From positions 8,644 to 72,643 of the forward strand of contig JBHPGK010000001.1 of the NCBI GenBank assembly GCA_042570605.1: DNA of 64,000 nucleotides, read 5' to 3'. Under the pieces are notes generated by a model. The model did no database searches. It saw only the letters and a program-made list of their open reading frames with translations, and had not been told where the DNA came from. Positions 25,361 through 53,697 of this stretch are shown piece after piece (position 1 is the stretch's first letter; the number at the start of each line of letters is the position of its first letter). The stretch is from Candidatus Zhuqueibacterota bacterium (lineage in GTDB: Bacteria > SM23-31 > JBHPGK01). The position numbers and the translations under genes were made by a program.

Positions 25361-25596
25361 AGAAAAGTACTAAAATTAAGAAAAAAAGTCAATTTTTAAT
25401 TTGGAGGGTAAATTAGAGATGAAATTTGACCAAAATTTTTGAAAATCACATAGTGTAAGGGCGAAGCATTTTTAAAGTAATAATTCTTTTTTAAAGGAGG
25501 TTATTCATATAAAATGCTTCGCCCCTACTTTATCATAGAAACATTAATATGGCTTGTAAAATTTTTTATATTTGAAGTACAGAATAAGATAAAACC

Positions 25597-26412
25597 TCAA
25601 AAAATCATATTTTGTTGAATAAATACTATTGCCCCCGTTTCGGGGTGGCAGTAAAAAGTGACAAGCCCTGCATCTACACCTTTTAAAGCGTAGATAAATA
25701 TTTGAAGTCCATCGGTCTTATCATATATTTCGTATTCATGTTTGAAATTATAAGTATCATCCCTGCTGTAAGTATGTTCTTTTTCACCTGTAAAGTCATG
25801 ATATGTATACGTATAACCGATGATATTACTCATAATTTTATCTTTATCAAACTGTACAGGTTTTTCAATTTTTATATCCGGGATCAGACCGGACTGAATA
25901 CTTTTTATTCTGCCTTCTCCGGAGAAACATAAATAAAGAATATGCCGGCTCACAAAATCCCAGTGTTTTCCGTTTATACCGGTCTGAATGAACCTTACAC
26001 TGAATTCATCCCAATCATTACTTATATTAGAATTGTAAAATTCAAGATTCTGCGCACTGCACCCGAACAGGTCTTCCCATTCTGTATAAAACTGCAATGC
26101 TCTTTCAATGCAGTCATTCTCATCATTCAAATTAAGCCCCTCGCTGAACACTATGGGATATGGTCTCTGAAAGCTTGCTTTTTCAAGGTACGAAGATGCA
26201 GGATTGAAATCGAGGTCCCACAGGGTATTCAGGTTATTATATTCAGTTAAAAAACTGTCCCACTTTTCCTGTATTTTTTCGTCCCTTTCCCAGTTGTAGG
26301 AAATAATATAAGGGTTTTTTGAATAAACTGTATCATCCGAACCGGTCAAGGAACATGAAAAGAAGGTCAAATGAATCAAAAGGAAATATTTTATGATTTT
26401 TACACAAATCAT
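25597..26412 (-). CDS. Paralog 1 of the six-member tandem lipoprotein family (unknown function).
   Basis: It has the FFSCS lipobox-like N-terminus and shared motifs NPYIISYNWE..IQEKWDSFL, WEDLFGC..NLE and a C-terminal YCHPETGAI. Confidence 0.6.
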   Translation of the reverse strand: MICVKIIKYFLLIHLTFFSCSLTGSDDTVYSKNPYIISYNWERDEKIQEKWDSFLTEYNNLNTLWDLDFNPASSYLEKASFQRPYPIVFSEGLNLNDENDCIERALQFYTEWEDLFGCSAQNLEFYNSNISNDWDEFSVRFIQTGINGKHWDFVSRHILYLCFSGEGRIKSIQSGLIPDIKIEKPVQFDKDKIMSNIIGYTYTYHDFTGEKEHTYSRDDTYNFKHEYEIYDKTDGLQIFIYALKGVDAGLVTFYCHPETGAIVFIQQNMIF

Positions 26413-26440
26413 ATTATTTTATTGTTTTTAGAGTGTTATC

Positions 26441-27283
26441 TTAATAAATACTCACAAGTATTTTTTCTGTTGTTTCCGGATGATAGTAAATTGTACATTT
26501 ATAATTATGGTCATCTTCAATCCAATAATATTTGATTCCTTTCAAATAGTAAACATATGCCTTATTTTCGGTATATTGTAAATATATTTCAAAATCGTCT
26601 TTTATATTGTAACTGTCTTTTGAGGTGAACTCATGATCAGGATACATAATAGAGCTGCCTGATAAATGAAATTTATGTTTATATCCCATCGTGCTGTGAA
26701 TCATATTATGAATATATGCTTTTTCAGGTTTTTCAATTTCCACATCCGGATATAATGCAGAAACGATCTGCAACAATTCACCATTTGTATTTACTCTAAA
26801 TCTGATCCATCGTCTGTAAACAAATTTTACTCTCCTATTATTAAGTTTTACCTGTTCAAATCTATAATTAAAATAATTCCCATAAAGGCTGTAGTCGTCC
26901 AGACGTTCAAATTCCAGATTCTCCACTTTACACCCAAACAGATCCTGCCACTTTTCATAAAATCCTAACAGGTCAGGGATAAAATCTTCCTTATTCGAGC
27001 TTGTAATTGAATCCGGAATAATTTTTGGTAAATTATTTTCAAAATAAGTTTGCATTAAATAGGATGTAGGCTTCATGAAAATTGTACCCTTGTCCATTGT
27101 CGCAGCATTATAAAAATCCAGAAATTGTTCCCATCTATCCTGAATCTGATTTTCTTTTTCCCAGTTGTAGGATATGATCACGGGATTGGCTGTTGTACTT
27201 TTTTCATCAGTTCCTGTAAGGGAACAATTATGTATAATTAAGACCGCTAATGATAAGAATTTTAAATATTTTAGATAATACAT
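26441..27283 (-). CDS. Paralog 2 of the tandem lipoprotein family.
   Basis: NPVIISYNWEKENQIQDRWEQFL, WQDLFGC and a C-terminal YYHPETTEKI are present. Confidence 0.6.
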   Translation of the reverse strand: MYYLKYLKFLSLAVLIIHNCSLTGTDEKSTTANPVIISYNWEKENQIQDRWEQFLDFYNAATMDKGTIFMKPTSYLMQTYFENNLPKIIPDSITSSNKEDFIPDLLGFYEKWQDLFGCKVENLEFERLDDYSLYGNYFNYRFEQVKLNNRRVKFVYRRWIRFRVNTNGELLQIVSALYPDVEIEKPEKAYIHNMIHSTMGYKHKFHLSGSSIMYPDHEFTSKDSYNIKDDFEIYLQYTENKAYVYYLKGIKYYWIEDDHNYKCTIYYHPETTEKILVSIY

Positions 27284-27295
27284 ATTTTTTAAATT

Positions 27296-28135
27296 TTACA
27301 GAATTTTAATATGTATAATTTCCCCCGTTTCAGGGTGGTAATAAATAGTACATTTAATTGTAAATCCACGTTCGACCCATGAAAATACAATTCCTTTTAA
27401 ATAATAGGTCAGGAAATAATTTTCTTCATAATCTACAAATAGTTCAAAGCCGTCCTTTAATTCAAAACTGTCATTAATTGAGAAAGTATGTTTCTCCGGG
27501 TACGGAAAAGAAGACCAGAGTGGGGCATTTATTTCAAAAGTATGACCAATTGTATTGTTGATCATGCGGCTCAAAAATGCATTATCAGGAATATCTATTT
27601 CAACATCGGGAATAAGAGAAGATATTATTCTGGTCAATTGCCCGGATGAACTTATATAGAACTCAATAGACTGTATAAGAACAAACACGCAATCTATTTT
27701 ATTTAACCTTTTCTGGATAAAACGCATATAGAAAGATCCTGTATCGCTGTATCTAAAGATATTATACAACTCCAGGTTTTCAACTGAGCAGCCGAACAGG
27801 TCCTGCCATTTCTCATAAAATTCAAGAATTTCGTCAATTAACTCAGTCTGGTTTAATAATACCGCGGGATCGGTAATAACTACAGGAAGATTGTTATTAA
27901 ATTTTGCATAAGTCAAGTATGAAGTTGATTTTATGAAGCGTGTTTTTTCAGTATCAGGTTCTGCGTTATATAAAGTCAGGAACTCAGCCCATCGCTCTTT
28001 GATATTATTATCAATTCTTGGATCAAAAGCAGTAATCACAGGATTAGAAGAGGTGTTTATATTTTCTCCGGGTGAGAAAATATCCGAGCAGGAAAAAATC
28101 AACAAAAATAATATACAAATAATGATCTTTTTCAA
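27296..28135 (-). CDS. Paralog 3 of the tandem lipoprotein family.
   Basis: It has an FSCS lipobox and WQDLFGCSVENLE and YYHPETGEI motifs. Confidence 0.6.
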   Translation of the reverse strand: MKKIIICILFLLIFSCSDIFSPGENINTSSNPVITAFDPRIDNNIKERWAEFLTLYNAEPDTEKTRFIKSTSYLTYAKFNNNLPVVITDPAVLLNQTELIDEILEFYEKWQDLFGCSVENLELYNIFRYSDTGSFYMRFIQKRLNKIDCVFVLIQSIEFYISSSGQLTRIISSLIPDVEIDIPDNAFLSRMINNTIGHTFEINAPLWSSFPYPEKHTFSINDSFELKDGFELFVDYEENYFLTYYLKGIVFSWVERGFTIKCTIYYHPETGEIIHIKIL

Positions 28136-28173
28136 GAGAGTCTCCTTTTAAGGATCATTTTTGAAAACAATTT

Positions 28174-29004
28174 TTAATTAGAATTTATTAACACTATCTC
28201 CCCCGTTTCAGGGTGGCAGTATACTGAATAGGTACTCGAGCCGTCCTGTTCAATAACATTTACGCATTTTAAAAAATATACATAATATTCTAATTCCGTT
28301 CTCTCAACATATACATTAAAATTCTCGCTAACCTCGTACCGGTCATCCTCAGTAAAGACCCGCACTACTTCGCCTGAATTCGGCGGATACACATAAGAAT
28401 ACCCGATAATATTTGACAGTATTTTATCATGGTCATACCTGTCAGGAACGGTAAGACCAAGGTCGGGAACAAGGGAATTATACAAATACCTGAAATTACC
28501 TGAATCGGTCACACCAATTACTATCTCGGGATTAAGTATAAAGGAAACATCCTGACCGTTCAGTTTTTTTTGAATAAAACTTATAGTAAATAAACGAAAA
28601 TCTGACCGGTATTCGAATTTATACATAATAAGACTTTCCGCTCCCGTTCCGAACAAGCCTTTCCATGTATCCAGGAATTCCAGTACTTTCTCGATAACTG
28701 CGTCCCGGTCATAAGCAATAAGAGTATCAGAAATGATGCGCGGCTGAGTCGCCCAGAAATGTATGTCATCGATATACGATGTCACCGGATTAAAATCCAT
28801 TGTAACATAACCGTCCTGAGACATATTATGCTGAGTAAGAAATTCAGACCATTTTTCCCGGATCTGTTCATCCCGGTACTCACTGAAAACGATCTTGACC
28901 GGATTATTTGAGTAGGAATATTCTTCATTAAGGTCCAATGACCGTTTTGAACAGGAGAAAACAAGAAATAGTGTTAAATTAAGGATAATATTTCTTCTTG
29001 ACAT
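28174..29004 (-). CDS. Paralog 4 of the tandem lipoprotein family.
   Basis: It has an FSCS lipobox and a YCHPETGEIV motif. Its 5' end overlaps the upstream paralog by about 26 nt, so the start is uncertain. Confidence 0.55.
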   Translation of the reverse strand: MSRRNIILNLTLFLVFSCSKRSLDLNEEYSYSNNPVKIVFSEYRDEQIREKWSEFLTQHNMSQDGYVTMDFNPVTSYIDDIHFWATQPRIISDTLIAYDRDAVIEKVLEFLDTWKGLFGTGAESLIMYKFEYRSDFRLFTISFIQKKLNGQDVSFILNPEIVIGVTDSGNFRYLYNSLVPDLGLTVPDRYDHDKILSNIIGYSYVYPPNSGEVVRVFTEDDRYEVSENFNVYVERTELEYYVYFLKCVNVIEQDGSSTYSVYCHPETGEIVLINSN

Positions 29005-29848
29005 AAATTATCTCCCCCGTTTCAGGGTGGCAGTAAATGACAAATCCCCATATTGAATTGCCAGTGTCCTTGACTTCAATTCCCTTGAGAAAATACATAT
29101 TATAAAAGGTTTCTTTTCTTTCAATATGTATTTCAAATCCATCTCTTATTTTATGCAGGTTTCCTGTATTTATTTTAAATGTGTTGTAGCTGTGCATATT
29201 ATTAATAGAGTGCCCGATTATACTTTTCATAATTTTATCCATATTACATTCTTTTGGAAATTCAGGATAGTCATTTAAAAAAATAGTATTCCAGAATCCC
29301 GATAATTCGCCGGTTTCTTTGATTGAAAATATGATACCGGGCTGGTCTATGAAAGGAACTTCCCTTCCCCCTATCCCATACTGCCTGAAATTAATTCTGA
29401 ATTGTTTATCCTCCTCGTAATATTCACTGCTATATACTCTAAAATTTGCATTAACTGAACCAAAAAGGTCACTCCATTCAAATAAAAAATCAATCAATCT
29501 GTCTTCAAGTATTTCTTTGTTTTCTGGATTAAACTCCTCATTAAAAATAACAGGTTTATAATCATTAAAATGTGATGATTCAAAATAAAATGTTACCGGA
29601 TCAAAACGAAAGTTCCCTTTATAATTATCAGGAATATTATAGGCACTTAAAAAATCTGTAAATCTTTCCTGTACTATGAGGTTTATTTCGCCACTGGCTT
29701 TTAGCTGGAAAGGATTCTCAAAATATTCCTTATCTTCAGTTCCATTGATATTTGAACAGCTCAAAAAACAAAACAAAACCACAGACAATACAATATTATC
29801 AAACATTGTTTCAAAAAATTTGTCGGTAATTTTGTAAAAAATTTTCAT
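28979..29848 (-). CDS. Paralog 5 of the tandem lipoprotein family.
   Basis: It has an FLSCS lipobox, WSDLFG and YCHPETGEII motifs. The internal Met at 29806 is a possible start. Confidence 0.55.
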   Translation of the reverse strand: MKIFYKITDKFFETMFDNIVLSVVLFCFLSCSNINGTEDKEYFENPFQLKASGEINLIVQERFTDFLSAYNIPDNYKGNFRFDPVTFYFESSHFNDYKPVIFNEEFNPENKEILEDRLIDFLFEWSDLFGSVNANFRVYSSEYYEEDKQFRINFRQYGIGGREVPFIDQPGIIFSIKETGELSGFWNTIFLNDYPEFPKECNMDKIMKSIIGHSINNMHSYNTFKINTGNLHKIRDGFEIHIERKETFYNMYFLKGIEVKDTGNSIWGFVIYCHPETGEIIYVKKKYYP

Positions 29849-29888
29849 GCTTCAAAAATCGGTTTTATCATTATCAAACAAAAGAGAA

Positions 29889-30767
29889 TCACCACCCTAC
29901 ATACATAATTTCCCCGGTTAATGGATGACAGTAAATTGTAAAAGGGATCCATGGCTCTTCTCTATAATCCACATTTTGTAAATATTCGACAGCTTTAACC
30001 ACATAAATTAATATAGCATTACCTTCATATTTAGTTAAAACAGAGTAACCATCCTTAAATCGAAAGTTGTCATTCTCATTTAATATATATAATTGAGACC
30101 ATTCACCATAAACGGCTTGAGAAGTAATATTTTCAAGTATTTTTTCCTTATTAAAGTAAGGGGGAATTTCAAGGTATACATCAGGAATGAGATCATTCCT
30201 TATTCCTGATAAAAAGCCGTAACAGTCTAAACTTATATATAAACTTCTGTCATATAATATGTTAACAGGGATTCCATTGATTTTTTTCTGAATAAAACGA
30301 ACATTGATCGATCCTTCATCACCAAATGAAATCTCTTCAATCTCCAGGTTATTTGCATCACAACCAAAGAGATCTTCCCACTTATCAACAAAATGGGTTA
30401 TTCTATTAAAAACCACTGCGGTATCAGTACATGATAATGTATCTCTAAATATTCTCGGTTTATCTTTATCAGTTATATACACATTACCCAAATATGAAGA
30501 TATTATATTTGGATTGAATATCATTTCTAATCCTCTGCACTCATATTCAGATAAAAATTGATCCCATTTTTCATAAAATTTGTCTTTCCTTTCTTTATCA
30601 TATGTTATTATAGCCGGATTAGCAGGCAAATTATTTTCGCCTGTTGGTCCATACAGATCAGAACAAAAATTGAATAAAGTTATAAAAATAAACAGGGATG
30701 AAATCAGCCTATTAGATGAGAAAAACCTTCGGAAGAGTTTTAATACCCCTTGCATTTTTTTCTTCAC
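29889..30767 (-). CDS. Paralog 6 of the tandem lipoprotein family.
   Basis: It has an NFCS lipobox and WEDLFGCDANNLE and YCHPLTGEIM motifs. Confidence 0.55.
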   Translation of the reverse strand: MKKKMQGVLKLFRRFFSSNRLISSLFIFITLFNFCSDLYGPTGENNLPANPAIITYDKERKDKFYEKWDQFLSEYECRGLEMIFNPNIISSYLGNVYITDKDKPRIFRDTLSCTDTAVVFNRITHFVDKWEDLFGCDANNLEIEEISFGDEGSINVRFIQKKINGIPVNILYDRSLYISLDCYGFLSGIRNDLIPDVYLEIPPYFNKEKILENITSQAVYGEWSQLYILNENDNFRFKDGYSVLTKYEGNAILIYVVKAVEYLQNVDYREEPWIPFTIYCHPLTGEIMYVGW

Positions 30768-31372
30768 CCGGGTTAATTACGAAAAATAAGCCCTTCTAAT
30801 AATATAGACGAAAAAAAATTCAAAAGGTAAATATTATTTTTTATTTTTGTAATTGGTTTAGAGCGAACAGAACTGTCCGGTAAAAACAAAAATTTATTTT
30901 TACTATCATTGCGAAGCGTCCCGATCCCGCTAAGCGGGAGGGACATCGAAGCAATCTCACTGTTCGGAGAAACTGACGATAAGATTCTTCTCCCCCAAGT
31001 TCTCGGGGGAATATAGGATGGGCGTGGCTATTAATTACAGATTCTCAATCAACAGACTGTGTGAAAACGGTATAAAAATAAGTACAAACGTATCATGAAG
31101 GAGTTCCATCCCAAGAGTTGAGATAGGGATGACTGAAACAATCTCATAATATATTTAATAATAATACCTCAGCGGTGAGATTGCTTCGTTGCTACGCGCC
31201 TCGCTATGACAGTAAAAATATTAAAATTATATAAAATCCTGCATTTTCACACAGTCTGCAACTCGGGAATAACAGTATTTGACGCAATATCAAGTAAAAA
31301 CTGGTTTTCCAAAGAATAAATTGGGAAATTGGCCTAAATTTGTTAAATTGAATCTTTAAATTTTGAGGAGAT

Positions 31373-31771
31373 ATGGAAGTATTCTGCTGGGGACAGGAAA
31401 AACTTATAAACATCGAGTCCTGCTTCGATTGTAAGGATTCCGGTAAATGCAAACAATATCAGAAGGCGCTCACAAGGCATCCTGACAGAATTGCATCTTT
31501 GAAAAGAAAATGGACAAACAAGTCCCCACAGATAGAGATAATAATAAGGAGGAAAGAAATGTCAAAAAAATCCGATAAGAAATCTCAGTCTTCATCTAAA
31601 AAAGACCCGAAATATGCCTACTTTTATGACAAGAAAGGACAGGAAGTCTTTCACGTCGGGACTGAAAAGGATATACAGAAACTCTACCATTCAGGCGGGA
31701 GTGTCAGCAAGATATTCAAACTCGGCGATGAAATGGAAGTTATCGTAAAGCTGGTAAAGAAAAAAACCTGA
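31373..31771 (+). CDS. Hypothetical small basic protein (weak call).
   Basis: It is the only ORF in an otherwise non-coding, repeat-rich region, and has a K/S-rich middle. No recognisable motif. Confidence 0.2.
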   Translation: MEVFCWGQEKLINIESCFDCKDSGKCKQYQKALTRHPDRIASLKRKWTNKSPQIEIIIRRKEMSKKSDKKSQSSSKKDPKYAYFYDKKGQEVFHVGTEKDIQKLYHSGGSVSKIFKLGDEMEVIVKLVKKKT

Positions 31772-34444: not shown

Positions 34445-35679
34445 AATTGGAATCTCCTATTACATAATAAAATAAAATTAGCTCACAAACGAGAGTTCTA
34501 GCACATATAAAATTATAAACTTCAGGAGAATCAAGTTAGTAGTAGTTACCATAAGAAAGTTAAAAAAAATATTTTCCGTTGTCAAATGATTTTATTTTAA
34601 ATTTTTTCTTTTTTTTACACTTGTGTCCGGCAATTATTAAATAGGGATTTTTCTCCAGGTAAACCGGTACTGGAATAACACAGAAGTTGAGGTCCTTAAC
34701 GTCATTCTGAACGCAGTGAAGAATCTCACTGCAAACAGCTTCGAACAGTAGGATTGCGTACTCGTCGCGCAAAAGGTAGTGACTTCCCCGAGCAATCTCA
34801 CCGATAAGGTATTGTCATTAATTTAGTTATGAGATTACTTCAGCCATTCCGACACATCGAGACTCCTTCGTAATAACACCTCTGTACATGTTTTTTACAG
34901 TTTTTTCACAAAGGGACTACTTCGTAGCACAAAGTGATCACTTCGTGATAGGATCTCATAAATAGAAGAGAAGATTCCGATCCCGAACATTCTGGACGGA
35001 ATGACAGTTCTGCACTTTAATCGCTTTGAAAAACGAGTTGGGAAACACGCCCGCAGGCTGGAATGACGGATAAGTACTTCTTTTTAACATTAACAAGAAT
35101 GTTCCATCCTGAGAACACGGATAAATGGTCTTAAAATACATCAAGAAATAAAGGTAGAACAAGTATCTACTCTATCAAAAATTGGAATAATTAAAAAATT
35201 GAAAAGGTTCAGTATGGAAAGAAAAATTTGGACAACCCCCAAAATTTACATGGTTATAAGGTATATCTTATTGATAATGTAAATACTTATGGGAAATATA
35301 GACATGAAAAATAATTGAAGCGAAGATGTCATTATCCGCCAGAGGTGGATCCCGCCATCTGCGGGACGAGGAGCGAAGCGACGTAGTAATCTGCCGGGAT
35401 TTTAGGATTTGTCTTTGTGGTAGTAGATTGCTTCTCCCGGTAAACCGGGATCGCAATGACATTTATGCCGTGGCAGGAGATTCTCCCCAGCACTCGGGTC
35501 CCCGGAATTACAGCCATTATTAAAAAATGGGGGTAGTCCAATAAGGAAATAAAAATATCTTGATTAAATGATATTTTTATGTTAATATTAAATTTTAAAA
35601 TCAGCATATCTAACTACATGAATATTAATAAGTTATAACCCAAACGCATAATACAGGTACAATTTCCCCGGAGGGATTA

Positions 35680-45022: not shown

Positions 45023-46261
45023 CTATTCATATCGTAGTGCATCAACACAGTCAATGCTTGCAGCACGGCGGGCTGGGAATGTGCCGAATATAATACCCAC
45101 AGCAGCGGATACTACAAATGCCACGAAAACCGATAACGGAGTGATCTTGGTAGTAAACTCAGCAAAACTGCTGACTATTAATGACATTGTTATTCCGAGT
45201 ATTACTCCAATAATCCCGCCAACAAGGCTGAGCCCGATAGACTCCAGTAAAAACTGGGTCATGATCTCTTTTTTCCTTGCACCTACAGCACGGCGGATAC
45301 CGATCTCGCGTGTACGTTCCAGAACGGTCGCCAGCATGATATTCATAATACCGATACCGCCCACAAGCAGTGAAATAGCGGCAATCGAACTTAAAACGAG
45401 GTTGTATATCCGTCTTTCCTTTTCCTCCTGTTTGAGCAGCTCATACGGAATAACAATATCAAAATCATCGTTATTATAATGGCGGCGGCTTACAATCCGG
45501 CGGATCACCGCGGCACTTTCAACAAGTTCATCAGAGTTCCGAATCTTTACAGTTAACTGGTCGATCTGGCTTGAGAGCTTTTCCTTTTTTTCGAATCTTC
45601 TTAAGATAGAGGATAGCGGGATATAAATATCCTGGTTTAAATTACGTGCAGCCAATTCACCTACAGTTTCTGTGAAAAGCGCTTTCGAACCCATTATGCC
45701 GATCACCTCAAACCACTGGTCATCGATCTTTACTTTTTTACCAAGCGGGTCCTCCACAGGGAAAAGCGTACTTGCTACCTCAGCGCCAAGTATGCAGACG
45801 CGGAGTTCCCTGTTATAATGGTCCTCAGATAAAAAAGTACCGGTCTTAGGTTCAATATTCAGTATCTCCTGAAATGCGGGTGTTACACCTACAAGATTAA
45901 CCTTGGAAGATTTATCCTCATATTTTGCTTCGACTTCAAGCTCAGATTGCGGAGCGACTTTTTCAATTGTCGGGACAATGTTTTTAATAGATTCAGCATC
46001 GGACAATGAAAGTCCCTGGGAGAATTTTGCACGGATTTCCTCAAGCTCTTTATCACTTAATTTTTTATCCCGAATGATAATATTATTTACACCAAGCGCT
46101 TTAAATTTTTCAAGTGCTTCTCGTTTAGCTCCTTCTCCGATTGCGAGCATTGCAATAACAGCAGCAACACCGAAAATGATACCGAGCATGGTTAAAACCG
46201 AGCGGAGCTTATGGACTTTCAGTCCTTCTATGCCAATCAGAAGATTCTCTTTAACATTCAT
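45023..46261 (-). CDS. MacB-type ABC transporter permease (MacB periplasmic core plus FtsX domain), with no fused ATPase.
   Basis: It has an N-terminal TM, a large periplasmic domain and three C-terminal TMs with the FtsX-like IGIMNIMLATVLERTREIGIRRAVGA motif. It is 412 aa. Confidence 0.8.
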   Translation of the reverse strand: MNVKENLLIGIEGLKVHKLRSVLTMLGIIFGVAAVIAMLAIGEGAKREALEKFKALGVNNIIIRDKKLSDKELEEIRAKFSQGLSLSDAESIKNIVPTIEKVAPQSELEVEAKYEDKSSKVNLVGVTPAFQEILNIEPKTGTFLSEDHYNRELRVCILGAEVASTLFPVEDPLGKKVKIDDQWFEVIGIMGSKALFTETVGELAARNLNQDIYIPLSSILRRFEKKEKLSSQIDQLTVKIRNSDELVESAAVIRRIVSRRHYNNDDFDIVIPYELLKQEEKERRIYNLVLSSIAAISLLVGGIGIMNIMLATVLERTREIGIRRAVGARKKEIMTQFLLESIGLSLVGGIIGVILGITMSLIVSSFAEFTTKITPLSVFVAFVVSAAVGIIFGTFPARRAASIDCVDALRYE

Positions 46262-47463
46262 TAAATTTCTCCCAGTCCGTTCTTTAATAAAATTTTGTCG
46301 CCCGGATTCAGGTTCCCTTTTACCATTGCTTCTTTGCTGTTTTTCGGGCCGACGGTTACCTTAGTCTTTTTCGGTCCATTCCCATTCTCAACATAGACAA
46401 AATACTCTCCTCCCTCCTGCCGGATGCAATTACTATTGACGAAAAGAGTATCTTTAAATTCTGCAATCACAAATTCGCAGCTTACAGTCATACCCGGTTT
46501 TAATATCTTGTCAACATCATCAAGCAGAACCACTAAATCAAAAACTTTGATCTTTGACTGCCTGTCCTTTTTACGGGATATATTGCTGACACTGATAATC
46601 GAACCGGTAAACGCTTTTTTTGGAAATGCATCTAACCTTACATAAGCTTTCTGCCCGACATGCACTTTCCCGATATCCATCTCACTGACAGTCGCTATGA
46701 CCTTCATCTGACTCATGTCTGGCAATAAAATTATGCCGTCTCCCCACCATACCTGGTCTCCAACAGCAACTTTTCTTCTGCCGCTCCCGCTCCATATTTG
46801 ACCATATTCGATCATCCCGTTTGCCGGAGCCCTCAGCGTATATGCATCGATAGCCTTTTTTGCCTGCTCGATATCCGATTTTATCTGAGAGAGCTTCAGT
46901 TCATTTATCAGCCTATCCTCATTATGCATTATTTTTGTTTTTTCTATCTTTTTAATTGTCCTGTTATAATTGATTTCAGCTATTTGAAGACTTACTTTTG
47001 AAATTTCTCTTTTGGTCGGAGATTCAAATTTGTCCTTTTCAGCCCGCAGTTTTACCGATCTCAGATCCGCTTCACTTGATTTTAATGACGCATTTAACTC
47101 TTTTAATTCGTTCTGCTGAGAGGTTTTAAGCTTATTGAATTCGGATTCCGCAATTGCCAGTTCACGTTTTTTGCCCTCCAACCTCTGCATTACTTTTGAA
47201 TTGTCAAGTTCTCCTATAACATCCCCTTTTTTGACATATGTGCCTTCAGCTGCAAGTTCAACAACTTTCGGCTGTTCAAAAAAACCTCTTATCATCGGTG
47301 CTGAGACCGACTTGGAATTAACTGCCCTTAATTCCCCTGTTTCAGTTATTGTGGAATAAAACCTGCCCTGCTGAACCAGGACAAAATGATTATTTCCTGA
47401 AGAACCGCCGCAGGCAAAACAGATCAGGAATAATAACTGAAAATAAAATATATATCTTTTCAT
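46261..47463 (-). CDS. HlyD-family periplasmic adaptor (membrane fusion protein), copy 1.
   Basis: There is a signal or lipobox (FACGGS), a long coiled coil, and beta-barrel/lipoyl-like motifs. Its start overlaps the permease stop. Confidence 0.75.
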   Translation of the reverse strand: MKRYIFYFQLLFLICFACGGSSGNNHFVLVQQGRFYSTITETGELRAVNSKSVSAPMIRGFFEQPKVVELAAEGTYVKKGDVIGELDNSKVMQRLEGKKRELAIAESEFNKLKTSQQNELKELNASLKSSEADLRSVKLRAEKDKFESPTKREISKVSLQIAEINYNRTIKKIEKTKIMHNEDRLINELKLSQIKSDIEQAKKAIDAYTLRAPANGMIEYGQIWSGSGRRKVAVGDQVWWGDGIILLPDMSQMKVIATVSEMDIGKVHVGQKAYVRLDAFPKKAFTGSIISVSNISRKKDRQSKIKVFDLVVLLDDVDKILKPGMTVSCEFVIAEFKDTLFVNSNCIRQEGGEYFVYVENGNGPKKTKVTVGPKNSKEAMVKGNLNPGDKILLKNGLGEI

Positions 47464-47492
47464 ATTTACCCTTCAATTAAACCTTAAATTTT

Positions 47493-48707
47493 CTAAAATG
47501 ACATTTCTGTCGGATCAACCAGTGCCACAGCATCACCTTCAACCAATCCCTCAACAATTATTACAAAATTATCATTTTCCTCACCCAATTTTACTTTACG
47601 CGGCTCAAATCCGCTTCCATTTTTCAGGTAGACTATGTTCTCACCGTCTTTTTTGAAAAGAGCATCAAGCGGAATACTTATAGTCTCGAGGATATTATTT
47701 ACGATGATCTCACAGCTTACAGTCATTCCCGGAATCAGTTTTTCATCATTGCCATCCATTAGAGCAATTATATCAAATACTTTTACTTTCGACTCCCTGT
47801 CTTTGAGCCTCGCAAGTGTGGCAATATCTGTTACATGACCGCTGTAGCTCGAATCGGGATACGCATCAAGTTTAACGATTACTTTCTGGTCCATTCCCAT
47901 TTTGGCGATATCCACTTCGTTGATAGGGACTTTAACTCTCATCAGGCTCAGATCCGGTAATCCAACCAGAGGATACCCGGGCCAGGTCTGATCGTTAACT
48001 GTAAATTTTTCCCCTGTTCTCCAGTTCTTTTCAACTATGGCAATCCCGGGATTGGGTGCTTTAACAGTAAGCATTTCCATAGTTAACTTAGCTTCATCCA
48101 GCTTATTCTGGGCTTGCAGCACCTTTAGATCAAGTGTATTGATTTCCTCTTTCTGAATACTCTTTTTATTCTCTATTTCCTGCTGCGCTTTATCAAGATT
48201 AATTGTTGCCTTTTCCAGATCAAGTTCTATTCTTTTTCTCTCAACTTCAGCATCATACTTTTTCAATTTCAGATTTAATTCGGAAATCTTGTGATTCAAG
48301 TTTGCAATTGCGAGATTAGTAACGAGTTCGTCCAATTGAGATTCATGGTTCGCTTTTGTTTTCCTGAGCTCGGATTTTGCAATTTCCAGTTCAGCTTCAG
48401 CATCTGATATGGTTTTCAACACATCGGATTTATCAAACTCCATCAAAACTTCATCCTTTTCCACCTGTTTTCCGTCTTCCACCATTTTCGTAATCTTCAG
48501 ATTAGATACTATATGCCATGGAATCGGGGGAGCGAATATCATTTTAGAGTTTACTGCCTCCAGTTCGCCTGTTTCTGTAACACTGATAATAAAATTACTC
48601 TTTTTGACAGTATAACAGTCAATTTCTTCATTTAAACTATGTTTACACGCAGAGACCAATATCATAAAAAGCAATAAAATTACAATTACCGGAGAATTCT
48701 TTGGCAT
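47493..48707 (-). CDS. HlyD-family periplasmic adaptor, copy 2.
   Basis: It has coiled-coil and MFP motifs. The likely start is the internal Met in MPKNSPVIV, so the track ORF start at 48770 is probably over-extended. Confidence 0.7.
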   Translation of the reverse strand: MPKNSPVIVILLLFMILVSACKHSLNEEIDCYTVKKSNFIISVTETGELEAVNSKMIFAPPIPWHIVSNLKITKMVEDGKQVEKDEVLMEFDKSDVLKTISDAEAELEIAKSELRKTKANHESQLDELVTNLAIANLNHKISELNLKLKKYDAEVERKRIELDLEKATINLDKAQQEIENKKSIQKEEINTLDLKVLQAQNKLDEAKLTMEMLTVKAPNPGIAIVEKNWRTGEKFTVNDQTWPGYPLVGLPDLSLMRVKVPINEVDIAKMGMDQKVIVKLDAYPDSSYSGHVTDIATLARLKDRESKVKVFDIIALMDGNDEKLIPGMTVSCEIIVNNILETISIPLDALFKKDGENIVYLKNGSGFEPRKVKLGEENDNFVIIVEGLVEGDAVALVDPTEMSF

Positions 48708-48788
48708 AATGCGCTCCTTTATATGGATTTTAAATTTAAATTTGTTCTTTATATATTTTTTCATATACATTTATGTATAAATACACTC

Positions 48789-50015
48789 TTATTTGATCTG
48801 TGAACTGCCCGGTTCACGTAAAGAGAGTTTTTCTCCATTGTTAACGCCGTTCTTAATTTCAATAAAATCATCGCCCTTATATGCAAGATCAACCTGCCGC
48901 TGCTCAAATTTATCTCCATCCTTAATATAAACAACATTGTTGCTGTCCTTTTCAAAAACACATTCCTTTGGAACTACAATTGCGTTCTCTAATTCCTCAA
49001 CAAAAATTTTACATTCGGCAGTGAGACCCGGAGTAAGAACGATATCAGTGCTGTCAAGATCAACTGTCACTCTTACCATCTTAACTTTAGACCTTCTATA
49101 GTTGATCAATACCGGCTTGGCGATTTTATCGACCATGGATACTTTTCCCGGCAGATCAAAATAACCGGATGATGAAACCGAAACTACAGCCTTCTGTCCT
49201 GTTTTAAGTTTTTGCGCATCTGTCTCGCTTACCTGAAGTTCAACCTGCATTACCGACAGGTCAGGAATTTTCACAAGCGGGTATCTTGTACGAACCATGT
49301 CGCCAAGCTCGTTCTTTTTATTTGTCCTTCTGTTAATTTCATATACAACAATTCCATCCATTGGAGCCTTTACAGTTAACTGCTCTTTGAAACGGTCATA
49401 CTGTTTCAATTTATTCTCTATTTGCTTTATCTTCATCTGCATAGAATTGATCTCTTCTTTTTTAACATTTTCCAATGATACCAGTTTTTTCCTGGTTTTT
49501 TCAGCTTCAATGTCAAATTTCTCAATCTCCAGTTTCTCGATTTCCTGTTTTGTCGGTGCTATAAACTCAAGTTCAGCCAAACGCAGTTTTTTAGATTCGG
49601 CAGAAGTTTCAAAAATTTTCAAATTCGATTCCAATTGTGACCGCTGTTCATCCAATTCAGTTTCCTTTTTTTTCAACTCCGCATTTTTCATTTCAATTTC
49701 ATTTAATGTGTTCTCGTATTCTCTTTCAAGCCGTTCATCTTTCATTACCGCTATAGTATCCCCTTCTTCCACCACAGTTCCTTCTGGTATTATATAAGAG
49801 AGTTCTTTCTGATAGTCAAGGCTCTGAGGAACTGAGATAGACCGGTTCACCTTAGCGTCCAGGACCCCGACAGATGTAACTGCTACACTGAAATTTTTTT
49901 CAACAGCTGTATAAGTAATACTGGATTTTGATTTGTCTGCAGAAGCGCAGTTCAAAAGAAAAGCAAATAATAAAAAAGGTATTGTCTGTAAAAATATTTT
50001 TTTTGTCATAACCAA
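48789..50015 (-). CDS. HlyD-family periplasmic adaptor, copy 3.
   Basis: It has a signal peptide, a coiled coil and C-terminal MFP beta domains. Confidence 0.7.
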   Translation of the reverse strand: MVMTKKIFLQTIPFLLFAFLLNCASADKSKSSITYTAVEKNFSVAVTSVGVLDAKVNRSISVPQSLDYQKELSYIIPEGTVVEEGDTIAVMKDERLEREYENTLNEIEMKNAELKKKETELDEQRSQLESNLKIFETSAESKKLRLAELEFIAPTKQEIEKLEIEKFDIEAEKTRKKLVSLENVKKEEINSMQMKIKQIENKLKQYDRFKEQLTVKAPMDGIVVYEINRRTNKKNELGDMVRTRYPLVKIPDLSVMQVELQVSETDAQKLKTGQKAVVSVSSSGYFDLPGKVSMVDKIAKPVLINYRRSKVKMVRVTVDLDSTDIVLTPGLTAECKIFVEELENAIVVPKECVFEKDSNNVVYIKDGDKFEQRQVDLAYKGDDFIEIKNGVNNGEKLSLREPGSSQIK

Positions 50016-51456: not shown

Positions 51457-52572
51457 CTAATCAAGCCTTTTATTAAATCTGAATACACTTAAACCGAATA
51501 TCCCTATCCCGAACAGGAGAAGGATCAAAAATTCATCCCACAGTACGTCAAATCCGTTACCTTTAAGGAATATTCCCCTCACAATGATAATAAAATACTT
51601 CAATGGAATAAAATGAGTAATGAATTGTATGATATCCGGCATATTCTCAATCGGAAAGATAAATCCGGAAAGATAAATAAAAGGCATCATAAAAAAGAAA
51701 ACTGAGGTCATCATTGCCTGCTGCTGAGTCCGCGATATTGTCGAAATAAACAATCCCAATCCAAGAGTTGTAGTGATAAAGACAGCACTCAAAATATAGA
51801 GCAGAAAAAGGCTGCCTTTTATCGGAATTCCGAACCAGAAATACGAAACAAGAAGTACAAGGTTTATATCAACAAAACCGATCAGAACAAAAGGTATCAA
51901 TTTCCCTGCTATCAATTGAACACGGGATACAGGGGTTACTATAAGCTGTTCCATGGTCCCTATCTCTTTCTCTTTGACTATTACCATCGATGTCAGCATC
52001 ATCGTAACGATCATCAGGAGAAAACACAAAACTCCCGGAACCATAAAATTCCTGCTCTTAAGCTCAGGATTATACCAAGATCTGAACTCAATATTTACTT
52101 TCGAATATTTCACCGGAATATTAATGTTTTTTAGAAGTTCACCGGTAAATTTCATTATTGCGGCTCTTGAATACCCTATCCCTATCGTAGAGGAATTGGC
52201 ATCGCTGCCGTCAACAATCAACTGAACGGGCGATTGTTCTCCCGTTTTTATATTATTTTCAAAGCCGGAAGGTATTACCAGCCCCATAGACACCTTGTTT
52301 CTCTGTATGGAGCGTTCCAGGTCGGTATAATTATCGAACTTATCTTTTAAAGTAAAATAACCGGAGGCGGTAAATTTCGAGATCAATCTTCTTGAATAAT
52401 AACTGTTATCCTTATCGTAAACAGCTAACGTGATATTCCTGACATCAAGAGTTACTGCGTATCCCAGGAGGATCAACTGAAGGATCGGAGCAACAAATAT
52501 AGGCGGAAGCAGTTTTTTATCCCTGAAAAGCTGTATCAATTCCTTTTTTACCAAATATTTTATTCTTTTCAT
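51457..52572 (-). CDS. ABC-2 type transporter permease.
   Basis: It has 6 TM segments and ABC-2 (YbhS/YbhR-like) topology. Confidence 0.75.
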   Translation of the reverse strand: MKRIKYLVKKELIQLFRDKKLLPPIFVAPILQLILLGYAVTLDVRNITLAVYDKDNSYYSRRLISKFTASGYFTLKDKFDNYTDLERSIQRNKVSMGLVIPSGFENNIKTGEQSPVQLIVDGSDANSSTIGIGYSRAAIMKFTGELLKNINIPVKYSKVNIEFRSWYNPELKSRNFMVPGVLCFLLMIVTMMLTSMVIVKEKEIGTMEQLIVTPVSRVQLIAGKLIPFVLIGFVDINLVLLVSYFWFGIPIKGSLFLLYILSAVFITTTLGLGLFISTISRTQQQAMMTSVFFFMMPFIYLSGFIFPIENMPDIIQFITHFIPLKYFIIIVRGIFLKGNGFDVLWDEFLILLLFGIGIFGLSVFRFNKRLD

Positions 52573-53697
52573 CTACAGGCTCTTTTTTAATCTTAATGAA
52601 CTTATCATTATCATAAATACAGAGAAGGCAGTTAACAGCAGGAACGGTTCCCAAAAACTCAAAAAACCGCTTCCCTTGAGTATAATACTTCTTAATATTA
52701 CAAGAAAATATCTTAACGGTACCAGGTAAGTTACAAATTGTATCACTTTCGGCATACTGCTGATAGGAAATACAAACCCGGAGAGTATCATCGAAGGAAG
52801 CATAGTAGAAAGTAATGCGATCATAAATGCCACCTGCTGCGATTCTGTAATTGTCGATATAAGCATACCAATACCAAGAGCGCTGAATACAAATATTAAA
52901 ACAGATATGAACAGATAAAAAATGCTGCCTTTTATGGTTATATCAAACAGGATCATACCGACAATTAAAATAAAAAATGAGGTCAGCAGAGAAATAAGCA
53001 TATAAGGAAGTGTTTTCCCTATTATCAATTCCTGGGCTTTGATCGGTGAAACACTTATCTGCTCTATAGTAAATCTTTCCTTTTCACGCACAATTGAAAG
53101 TGATGTAGCAATGACGCAGACCATCATTAAAATAAATCCGATTAGTCCGGGCACAAGAAATTTAGCGCTTTTCAATTCCGGATTATACCATATCCGGTGT
53201 ATTATATCAACAGGCAGGGCTTCTTTTTTAATACCGGTTTTTTTGAACGCTTCAATCAGGATCTTTTTTGAAAAATCCTGGATATACATATTCAGGTTGC
53301 CCAGTGCTGTCATTCCCGTATTAGAATTGGTACCGTCAAGGAGAACCTGAATATTCGCATTTTCCCCGCTTATTAATTTATCTGAAAAATCTTCCGGTAT
53401 TACAATACATAGTGCTGCATCTCCTCTGTTAAGATACCCGTCTATCTGGTTATAAGATGTCAGGTGGTACCGTATATCAAAATGGTCATAAAGCCTGAGC
53501 ATTGTTATTAACCGCCTGCTGGAATCCGAATTATCATAATCCAGAACGGCAGTTTTAACATTTTTTACATCAAAATCTACGGCATAACCGAATAATAGAA
53601 GCAGAAAAGCCGGGAACACAATTAAAAGCAGCAAGGTACGCTTGTCCCTTGAAATCTGATGAAATTCCTTTACTATGACTGCAGCTAACCTATGCAT
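52573..53697 (-). CDS. ABC-2 type transporter permease (paralog).
   Basis: It has the same architecture as the downstream gene and is contiguous with it. Confidence 0.75.
   Translation of the reverse strand: MHRLAAVIVKEFHQISRDKRTLLLLIVFPAFLLLLFGYAVDFDVKNVKTAVLDYDNSDSSRRLITMLRLYDHFDIRYHLTSYNQIDGYLNRGDAALCIVIPEDFSDKLISGENANIQVLLDGTNSNTGMTALGNLNMYIQDFSKKILIEAFKKTGIKKEALPVDIIHRIWYNPELKSAKFLVPGLIGFILMMVCVIATSLSIVREKERFTIEQISVSPIKAQELIIGKTLPYMLISLLTSFFILIVGMILFDITIKGSIFYLFISVLIFVFSALGIGMLISTITESQQVAFMIALLSTMLPSMILSGFVFPISSMPKVIQFVTYLVPLRYFLVILRSIILKGSGFLSFWEPFLLLTAFSVFMIMISSLRLKKSL

Follow-up and report, generated by a model that had tools for sequence, protein, structure and literature searches.

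Secreted proteases and lytic enzymes are kept inactive until they are outside the cell, usually by a covalently attached prodomain. PepSY and FTP prodomains embrace the peptidase as chaperone-inhibitors, and the PepSY domains of YpeB do likewise, in trans, for SleB (PMC13556211); in Bacillus, YpeB carries three extracytoplasmic PepSY domains, and SleB is a cortex-lytic enzyme. PepSY proteins with a signal peptide only are a recognised class, group 2 of Yeats, Rawlings and Bateman (2004), in which a signal peptide is followed by 1-5 PepSY domains and which includes the Streptomyces lipoprotein SspA (PMC4282423). The broader PepSY/BLIP/SmpA_OmlA/DUF2874 (PepSY_like) superfamily, treated in the BVU2987 paper, comprises periplasmic putative inhibitors that have been proposed to act as inhibitory binders (PMC2954215).

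The array described here, from an uncultured KSB1 bacterium, lies at 25597-30767 of the window, the 64,000-nt stretch of DNA that was analysed. Its proteins resemble the propeptides of M4 (MCP-02, PDB 3nqy/3nqz chain A) and M36 (fungalysin, PDB 4k90 chain B) peptidases in their predicted FTP+PepSY fold. Unlike those propeptides, they end after the PepSY-like module, are neither fused to nor beside an M4/M36 catalytic domain, carry a lipoprotein-type signal and a third module, and occur as six tandem paralogs with no Pfam FTP match and with PepSY below threshold family-wide. By contrast with YpeB, they would be anchored by a lipobox-type Cys and lack an adjacent partner gene; to our knowledge, and judging from taxonomy, the organisms that carry the family are not endospore formers. 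They are like the group 2 proteins in having an export or lipoprotein signal and then PepSY-type modules only (PMC4282423), but group 2 passes the Pfam PepSY threshold whereas the array proteins do not, and the latter look like a whole FTP+PepSY prodomain, not like simple repeats of PepSY; in the literature on this class we found no six-gene arrays described. With the PepSY/BLIP superfamily they share small exported alpha+beta modules, often tandem and frequent in the Bacteroidota/FCB group, for which action by binding of a partner domain has been proposed (PMC2954215).

Six old paralogs in a tandem array

The six genes are consecutive same-strand ORFs of 271-292 aa each, tightly spaced with gaps of -26 to +40 nt (Table 1), and the ORFs together with their homology confirm the tandem array of six diverged minus-strand paralogs reported in a preliminary description of this DNA. 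Pairwise amino acid identity is 24-43%, with g5 the most divergent copy (24-28% against the other five) and g3 the nearest relative of g2 within the array (43%). The proteins share a structural core and differ at about 70% of positions; only 24 alignment columns are invariant, mostly aromatic or Pro/Gly core positions. The family HMM scores g6 at 284 bits. The deposited annotation leaves out the signal of both terminal genes, giving 246 aa for g6 (P0007) and 250 aa for g1 (P0002), and our ORF analysis puts right both truncated starts.

Table 1. Features of the array and its flanks, with positions in the window
Feature	Position	Strand	Description
spacer	30768..31372	-	605 nt, upstream of g6; membership in the array unit by position only
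g6	29889..30767	-	292 aa, GTG start; first gene of the array; from ORF and alignment
g5	28979..29848	-	289 aa; FGS in place of FGC
22-nt string in g5	29014..29035	-	part of a 27-nt run identical to g4
g4	28174..29004	-	276 aa; lipobox LVFS/C; FGT in place of FGC
22-nt string in g4	28200..28221	-	0 mismatches
g3	27296..28135	-	279 aa; TTG start with AAGGAG upstream; lipobox LIFS/C; YYHPETGEI
22-nt string in g3	27322..27343	-	2 mismatches; 18-nt run identical to g4 and g5
g2	26441..27283	-	280 aa; non-canonical IIHN/C; YYHPETTEK
g1	25597..26412	-	271 aa; lipobox TFFS/C; YCHPETGAI; last gene of the array
22-nt string in g1	25632..25653	-	1 mismatch
hairpin	25450..25533	.	23-nt arms, 87% complementary, 38-nt loop

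These genes are old paralogs of one rare, unannotated protein family. In the tree, g1 groups at 100% with P0003, its 66% identical ortholog from an ENA metagenome, g5 groups with P0014 at 97%, and g2 and g3 group with a Caldithrix-type clade at 100%; because array copies interleave in this way with the homologs of other organisms, the duplications are old and the copies have been individually maintained. That several copies have separate orthologs elsewhere speaks against a recent diversifying burst, and the earlier picture of a currently diversifying array is not supported. Tandem copies occur elsewhere as well (two in L008, three on the 2.1-kb contig L010), at least two further family members are present in the array's own genome, and a Blastocatellia branch is more populous, being found in many metagenome assemblies and forming 333 clusters at 90% identity.

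Alignment bears out the shared blocks noted at the outset, including the C-terminal motif: NPxI, W..FL..YN, W.DLFG..NLE and Y[CY]HPETGEI are all present in the array. The two Cys that had been taken as invariant are not, since that of FGC is replaced in g4 and g5 and YCHP becomes YYHP in g2 and g3, so that both are kept in g1 and g6 only. With each Cys lost from two copies, the idea that an invariant Cys pair forms a disulfide or metal site is not supported.

Upstream of g6, the 605-nt spacer is presumed to hold the array's promoter and leader; nested long-range inverted repeats lie within it at 30895-31258 (fold z = -6.9), and it has no Rfam match. At the other end, a hairpin in the 236-nt spacer that separates the g1 stop from the GGT gene may mark the end of the array transcript, although it was not called by the terminator scan.

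Export signals and predicted fold

All six proteins begin with an n-region containing K/R, a hydrophobic h-region and then Cys-Ser, and in the family at large 24 of 26 members have a Cys behind the hydrophobic stretch. The lipoprotein-type signals of the preliminary description therefore stand as signal-like segments with a Cys in every copy, whereas a canonical lipobox is confined to half of them: PROSITE PS51257 is matched by g1, g3 and g4 only (12/26 family-wide), the departures being N at -1 in g2, F at -1 in g6 (...LFNF/CS) and C at -4 in g5. Both structure models place a helix at the N-terminus, next to which lies a low-confidence linker in g1 and a segment with a pLDDT of ~58 in g5; in each protein a flexible linker comes after the signal-like helix and its conserved terminal Cys. 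Judging from these signals, the products are probably exported, lipid-anchored at the Cys and located in the envelope.

The remaining body of roughly 240 residues is predicted with high confidence as three alpha+beta modules (g1, pLDDT 88.2, pTM 0.79; g5, pLDDT 89.9, built on a different, 26-sequence alignment). The top Foldseek hits in the PDB were 3nqy_A and 3nqz_A, the vibriolysin MCP-02 propeptide, with probability 1.0, and in both models the most complete superpositions, about 150 residues covering both domains, were with M4/M36 prodomains and YpeB. The nearest solved structures are the FTP+PepSY propeptides of M4 (thermolysin-type) and M36 (fungalysin-type) peptidases and the tandem PepSY of YpeB. 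The modelled PepSY fold, a helix against an antiparallel beta-sheet, superposes on solved PepSY structures, and the modelled FTP+PepSY two-domain structure superposes as a whole with the M4/M36 propeptide.

In Pfam no family match reaches threshold for the array family, in keeping with the initial failure to recognise it. PepSY (PF03413, gathering threshold 24 bits) alone among Pfam families is matched by at least two members, and its matches all stay below threshold: none of the six window proteins has one even at E<=1; they occur in 3 of the 26 members of the family (best E 0.0048) and in 20 of 29 members of a distant branch (best E 0.0019), with P0030 scoring 12.6 bits. In the P0030 alignment, the only one shown, positions 30-59 of the 60 in PF03413 are covered, which correspond to the C-terminal hairpin. 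The signature of this hairpin, D-x-x-T-G-x-[ILV], is present in the distant branch as YVDAxTGE[IL], aligned with Y[CY]HPETGEI in the KSB1 branch, and the C-terminal YCHPETGEI is the family's version of the PepSY '...DAxTGE...' terminal hairpin. FTP (PF07504) gave no match at E<=10 in the 26 members or at E<=1 in the 29 distant members, and hhalign detected no internal sequence repeat. As to whether the six belong to a well-characterised family, a case the preliminary description had raised against itself, sequence profiles place none of them, and structure gives the fold of an FTP/PepSY prodomain.

Candidate function

Analogy with these prodomains, together with the models, suggests that the array proteins are most likely tethered chaperone- or inhibitor-like binders of secreted hydrolases. 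Each would be a free-standing tethered prodomain that clasps the catalytic domain of a secreted enzyme, perhaps a peptidase, perhaps a cell-wall or other lytic enzyme, which would be stabilised and/or silenced close to the cell; with about 70% of positions differing among the six copies, their partners would differ too. The explanation as a whole, in which old lipoprotein-like paralogs serve as tethered prodomain-like hydrolase binders and have undergone micro gene conversion, is the best we can offer, and we give it slightly less than an even chance. A bolder version is doubtful: in KSB1 and Calditrichota, lipid-anchored trans-prodomains detached from their protease, with at least six paralogs per genome, would each serve a different secreted hydrolase at the cell surface, folding it, holding it and keeping it silent until release.

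The neighbourhood does not single out a partner. The array is flanked by genes for GGT, CutA, CstA, ArgRS, a GH38 mannosidase, ADH and an aminotransferase; no M4/M36 peptidase is encoded in the 30 window ORFs that surround the array or in the genes next to homologs, and the window peptidases nearest the array are an M1 peptidase about 16 kb off and the adjoining gamma-glutamyltranspeptidase. No conserved neighbour gene or cognate enzyme was found for the family: homologs lie near a BNR-repeat protein in syntenic Caldithrix, near a TIR protein or proteins without family elsewhere, and in one lineage directly upstream of a serpin. The serpin placement counts in favour of the binder reading; the four contigs concerned encode an identical protein and count as one observation.

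The same fold may instead do another job, in envelope proteins whose PepSY-like scaffold serves a purpose unrelated to binding hydrolases, such as modulation of sensor kinases (YycI/YycH, BqsP/Q), metal binding (lanpepsy), or outer-membrane structure and assembly (SmpA/OmlA-type). We regard this as somewhat unlikely, because M4/M36 prodomains and YpeB give the best superpositions in both models, the array has no histidine kinase or metal-uptake gene at its flanks, and the alignment of the paralogs contains no conserved acidic or His/Cys ligand set. A surface-lipoprotein or immunity array, evolving fast under conflict with phage, predators or toxins while a concerted C-terminal anchor motif is retained, would account for the tandem arrangement with its 24-43% identity, for the concentration of indels in two loops of the last module, for the excess nucleotide identity in a short tract, and for the tandem copies in other metagenomes. 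It is nevertheless improbable: the separate orthologs of the paralogs mark them as old and stably maintained, the three modules are evenly diverged, at about 30% each, and the conserved tract spans just 18-27 nt in four of the six copies. The immunity-protein reading in particular finds no toxin, secretion-system (T6SS/CDI), phage or defence gene adjacent to the array, which has no match in PADLOC or PHROG.

A reading of these genes as non-functional relics, mis-called ORFs or a repeat assembly artefact is effectively refuted. Only the absence of annotation and of an experimental record speaks for it, whereas the six ORFs are intact, of matching length and conserved in their core motifs, the structure models are confident and concordant, and homologs are present in independent assemblies. 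Inter-copy nucleotide identity of 45-54% makes collapse of repeats in the assembly, which had been raised as a possible source of the shared 3' identity, impossible.

If the array proteins are free-standing tethered prodomain mimics, trans chaperone-inhibition of the YpeB-SleB type would extend to Gram-negative, non-sporulating, uncultured phyla, and a single genome could maintain eight or more specialised versions. Detached trans-prodomains, if real, would provide modular membrane-tethered zymogen control of extracellular digestion, or a shield against the proteases of competitors; if the proteins are ordinary envelope scaffolds, the array is merely another lineage-specific lipoprotein expansion. 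With the fold comes a structural way into a protein family annotated nowhere, its Blastocatellia branch included, and a hypothesis about it that can be tested.

A shared tract near the 3' ends

The 22-nt string CCCCCGTTTCAGGGTGGCAGTA occurs in g1, g3, g4 and g5 with 0-2 mismatches, where shuffles give an expectation of 0; in g5 its codons are TAC TGC CAC CCT GAA ACG GGG G, encoding YCHPETG. The longest identical runs measure 27 nt between g4 and g5 (column permutation, P<0.0005) and 18 nt between g3 and either of these (P about 0.001), and the flanks diverge at once. In simulations that kept the amino acids and resampled codons according to usage in these genes, at least four of six copies came within 2 mismatches only about 0.5% of the time (P about 0.005, somewhat optimistic because the tract was chosen after inspection). 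Simulation and permutation thus agree with the preliminary description that nucleotide identity at the C-terminal motif exceeds coding constraint. Its concerted 3' ends survive as a string in four copies, confined to a single tract of 18-27 nt rather than the 3' ends at large.

This tract is best explained as micro gene conversion between neighbours, which fits both the identity above amino acid expectation and the use of minor codons (ACG 9%, GGG 23%, TAC 25%, CAC 26%) in a set that homologs elsewhere do not share. Conversion would be confined to the sole segment similar enough for recombination between neighbouring copies. Against it, the tract length is close to the lower limit for homologous recombination, and with one tract of at most 27 nt, conversion can be favoured over selection as the mechanism only tentatively. 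Selection on the nucleic acid itself, favouring a small hairpin in the mRNA, a pause at slow codons close to the C-terminus or the ribosome-binding site of the next gene, is a rather unlikely alternative. It could draw on the minor codons common to the tract, on CCCY-GAAAC-GGGG hairpins (-7 to -12 kcal/mol) that are possible in the four string-bearing copies only, and on the GGGGGAG of the g5 string. However, the hairpins do not outperform shuffled sequences (z between +0.1 and -1.8), just one of the four strings is placed as a ribosome-binding site, the motif is written in different codons in homologs from other organisms, and g2 and g6 lack the string. In that one placement the 3' end of g5 overlaps the start of g4 by 26 nt and the GGGGGAG of the conserved g5 motif precedes the g4 ATG by 7 nt, so that translational coupling of g5 and g4 is possible.

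The array and its relatives

ORF calling recovers six head-to-tail genes on the minus strand, g1 to g6, exactly where the preliminary description had placed them, and the short intergenic gaps between g6, the first gene, and g1, the last (40, -26, 38, 12 and 28 nt), make a single transcript likely. The GGGGGAG found within the conserved motif of g5 lies 7 nt upstream of the g4 ATG and could serve as a Shine-Dalgarno sequence for g4, coupling translation of the two genes; the upstream regions of g1 and g2 are AT-rich and carry no Shine-Dalgarno-like GGGGGAG. A promoter and terminator scan of the array DNA, which is AT-rich, was uninformative. The flanks are ordinary metabolism and housekeeping genes, with gamma-glutamyltranspeptidase (GGT), CutA, CstA, ArgRS, a metallo-beta-lactamase-fold protein and RecD2 downstream, and a GH38 alpha-mannosidase, an alcohol dehydrogenase and an aminotransferase upstream.

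Coordinates of the array genes and of other features of the window
Feature	Position (nt)	Strand	Detail
Hairpin between g1 and GGT gene	25450-25533		23-nt arms (87% complementary), 38-nt loop; in the spacer from the end of g1 to the start of the GGT gene
g1	25597-26412	-	271 aa ORF
g2	26441-27283	-	280 aa ORF
g3	27296-28135	-	279 aa ORF
g4	28174-29004	-	276 aa ORF
g5	28979-29848	-	289 aa ORF
g5/g4 overlap	28979-29004		26 nt, different frames
g6	29889-30767	-	292 aa ORF
Spacer upstream of g6	30768-31372		nested long-range inverted repeats within 30880-31270
Inverted repeats upstream of g6	30895-30918/31197-31220; 30944-30960/31175-31191; 31053-31067/31244-31258
ORF between upstream spacer and GH38 gene	31373-31771	+	132 aa
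HlyD-type membrane-fusion paralogs	46261-50015		three consecutive (400, 425, 408 aa)
ABC-2 permease paralogs	51457-53697		two

The six proteins can be aligned over their full length at 24-43% pairwise identity, g2 and g3 being the closest pair, and the alignment contains the sequence blocks quoted in the preliminary description. Scanning the 64-kb window with a family HMM brings up no additional copy. Two more members occur elsewhere in the same assembly (P0012, ACFL4T_08425, and P0018, ACFL4T_08375), which NCBI names 'candidate division KSB1 bacterium' and in which the array carries locus tags ACFL4T_00145 to 00165; the KSB1 genome holds at least eight family copies. The genes for P0012 and P0018 are ten locus tags apart, on other contigs.

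The family as a whole is a very rare one: of 1.84 billion cluster representatives, searched exhaustively with HMMER, 31 proteins reach E<=0.001, the window's own six among them, and 18 of the 31 score below 1e-30. Close relatives outside the source genome come from one Caldithrix MAG and a handful of metagenomes. Used as a DNA pattern, a second motif led to one Caldithrix genome and to two metagenome loci that are genuine, its two other matches being due to chance; a DNA-pattern search with a tighter alignment gave pattern matches and no confirmed relatives. Tandem copies are found on two other contigs: L008 has two and the 2.1-kb L010 has three, each array being truncated by contig ends. A commoner, single-copy remote branch, assigned to Blastocatellia in NCBI records, comprises 333 clusters at 90% identity. 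A fused variant, P0017 (394 aa, L012 1115-2299), has about 150 extra N-terminal residues between the lipobox and the NPV...W..F start, and its gene adjoins one for a DUF3108 protein.

The array had been described as diversifying. In a neighbour-joining tree, g1-g6 do not form one clade: g1 groups with P0003 (bootstrap 100%), g5 with P0014 (97%), and g2 and g3 with Caldithrix-type sequences (100%). Because array members are scattered in this way among the homologs of other organisms, the duplications are old and each copy has been kept, and this age and retention argue for distinct, maintained roles over ongoing diversification.

Predicted fold, export and possible function

The preliminary description did not recognise the family, and our searches agree: Pfam, NCBIfam, PADLOC and PHROGs offer no meaningful match to g1-g6, and PDB profile matches to COG2, DUSP5 and Spindlin, obtained with 6- and 26-sequence profiles, are at chance level. 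The predicted structures are more informative. AlphaFold models of g1 (pLDDT 88.2, pTM 0.79, from an alignment of the six paralogs only) and g5 (pLDDT 89.9, from 26 family members) each contain three alpha+beta modules, and the top Foldseek match in the PDB is the propeptide chain of vibriolysin MCP-02 (probability 1.0). Divergence is even across modules, at about 30% identity each, and the proteins differ in length at two loops of the third. The sequences agree weakly but specifically with this fold: no Pfam family other than PepSY came up repeatedly when members were scanned one by one (3/26 family members and 20/29 in the remote branch, always sub-threshold); in the only such alignment shown, that of family protein P0030, the match spans the last 30 profile positions. 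Since the remote branch ends in ...YVDAxTGE[IL]... and these sub-threshold matches recur, YCHPETGEI is the form that the PepSY terminal hairpin takes in the KSB1 type. The member scans never matched FTP (PF07504), hhalign probabilities for internal module duplication were below 1% with no repeat seen, and of the 333 relatives gathered with a distant-branch profile, none of the 120 listed has a Pfam annotation that would provide a bridge to annotated PepSY proteins. The proteins are best described as prodomain-like by fold, an assignment in which we have high confidence, and not as members of a Pfam family.

A conserved disulfide or metal site had been proposed on two supposedly invariant cysteines. 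The FGC cysteine is replaced by Thr in g4 and by Ser in g5, and the YCHP cysteine by Tyr in g2 and g3, which excludes such a site. As for the lipoprotein signals, each of the six proteins starts with a basic region that leads through a hydrophobic stretch to Cys-Ser, and the signal cysteine is kept in 24 of the 26 family members, but the strict PROSITE lipobox rule is satisfied only by g1, g3 and g4 (12/26 family-wide), position -1 being Asn in g2 and Phe in g6. Both models place an N-terminal helix ahead of the folded body, followed in g1 by a low-confidence linker, as expected of a tethered protein. We consider g1-g6 probable lipoproteins. The deposited g1 (P0002, 250 aa, starting MTGSDD) and g6 (P0007, 246 aa, starting MPANPA) have their signals cut off; both the family alignment and the four remaining paralogs support these signal peptides, and the deposited starts are probably start-codon mis-calls.

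The prodomains of M4/M36 metalloproteases (FTP plus PepSY) clasp the catalytic domain and serve it as intramolecular chaperones and inhibitors, and the PepSY domains of YpeB play the same role in trans for SleB (PMC13556211). Proteins consisting of a signal peptide and PepSY only are a recognised class, for which control of hydrolases near the cell has been proposed, and a lipoprotein with PepSY has been described (PMC4282423); for the wider PepSY/BLIP superfamily, binding of partner domains is the proposed mode of action (PMC2954215). From these precedents, the most likely function of g1-g6 would be that of membrane-tethered binders that stabilise and/or silence a secreted hydrolase, with the paralogs perhaps covering different partners. 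By analogy, then, we propose a chaperone or inhibitor function tentatively; its main rival, in which the same scaffold is put to non-inhibitory use, we regard as nearly as likely.

Genomic context points to no partner enzyme. The 64-kb window encodes no M4/M36 enzyme, and an M1 peptidase is 16 kb from the array. The adjacent GGT is separated from g1 by a hairpin-bearing spacer of 236 nt and neighbours the family in no other locus. On L002 (10001-11870; also L003-L005) a spacer of 92 nt separates the gene for P0009 from a serpin gene downstream on the same strand. We have downgraded the serpin as a functional partner, since all four contigs encode an identical protein and represent a single lineage, and since at the syntenic Caldithrix locus (L016), which shares the aminotransferase and methyltransferase of the opposite flank, a BNR/YCF48-like protein occupies the serpin's position. 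Beyond the serpin on L002 comes a DUF3160 protein of 915 aa, possibly a T9SS substrate, with weak matches to Por_Secre_tail and FlgD_ig. The remaining neighbours of homologs are mutually unrelated (a TIR protein, DUF3108, an EamA transporter and a 781-aa protein without a family). The TIR-domain protein (355 aa) follows a family member on the same strand of a short metagenome contig (L017 66-2097); the 781-aa protein, which matches no Pfam family, follows a remote-branch gene after 87 nt at two loci (L013 9051-12295 and L014).

Exported proteins with a PepSY-type module and no catalytic domain are already known. Three things are new: the sequences form a family that no curated library covers; they resemble a complete two-domain prodomain, yet stand free and probably have a lipid anchor; and in an uncultured phylum they are organised as ancient paralogs in an array of six genes. 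Discovery of a cognate enzyme set would make the array clearly more interesting.

Nucleotide identity at the C-terminal motif

The string CCCCCGTTTCAGGGTGGCAGTA, whose coding strand reads TAC TGC CAC CCT GAA ACG GGG G (Y-C-H-P-E-T-G), occurs four times with <=2 mismatches, and never in shuffles. The concerted 3' ends reported earlier reflect a real excess of nucleotide identity, but a small one, confined to <=27 nt in four copies (g1, g3, g4 and g5). Synonymous sites among the six copies are saturated, a codon being common to 48% of same-amino-acid pairs, and in the six-copy average the motif is about equal to the rest (0.55 vs 0.48). The four copies have in common minor codons of their synonymous families (ACG 9%, GGG 23%, TAC 25%, CAC 26%). 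When codons were resampled with peptides fixed, from the genes' own usage or the window's, at least four of six copies came mutually within 2 mismatches in only ~0.5% of trials. In pairwise comparison of the copies, the longest stretches of identity all fall at the motif (g4-g5, 27 nt; g3-g4 and g3-g5, 18 nt); in permutations the 27-nt run was never reached and the 18-nt runs had P ~0.001.

Collapsed repeats in the assembly are no explanation, because overall nucleotide identity between copies is 45-54%. Homologs in other organisms use different, commoner motif codons, which makes the shared minor-codon tract a local phenomenon. We read it as micro gene conversion among neighbouring copies, at the sole segment similar enough to recombine. 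Selection on RNA that keeps the tract is a live alternative. A small hairpin is possible at the string in just the g1, g3, g4 and g5 copies, but with z-scores that are not significant it is no better than in shuffles, and Rfam has no match there; a structured RNA at the string was therefore rejected. GGGGGAG is positioned as a ribosome-binding site only in g5, for g4.

Spacers and other features of the window

Minus-strand RNA of the inverted-repeat region upstream of g6 is predicted to fold at -120 kcal/mol vs -86 +/- 5 in shuffles (z = -6.9), with no Rfam match to the region. The 14-mer GTGAGATTGCTTCG occurs only in both repeat arms, plus a 2-mismatch copy at 34788, and the element might represent either a MITE-like insertion or a structured leader for the array. 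A CGAAGCA core in the arms of the hairpin beyond g1, which a simple terminator scan did not call, recurs in these inverted repeats. The 132-aa ORF beside the upstream spacer matches nothing in Pfam, PADLOC or PHROG. The likelier gene there seems to start at an internal ATG, which follows AGGAGGAAAG and would yield a lysine-rich protein of ~70 aa. The HlyD-type paralogs, which adjoin a MacB/FtsX-type permease, and the ABC-2 permeases form another local paralog cluster.
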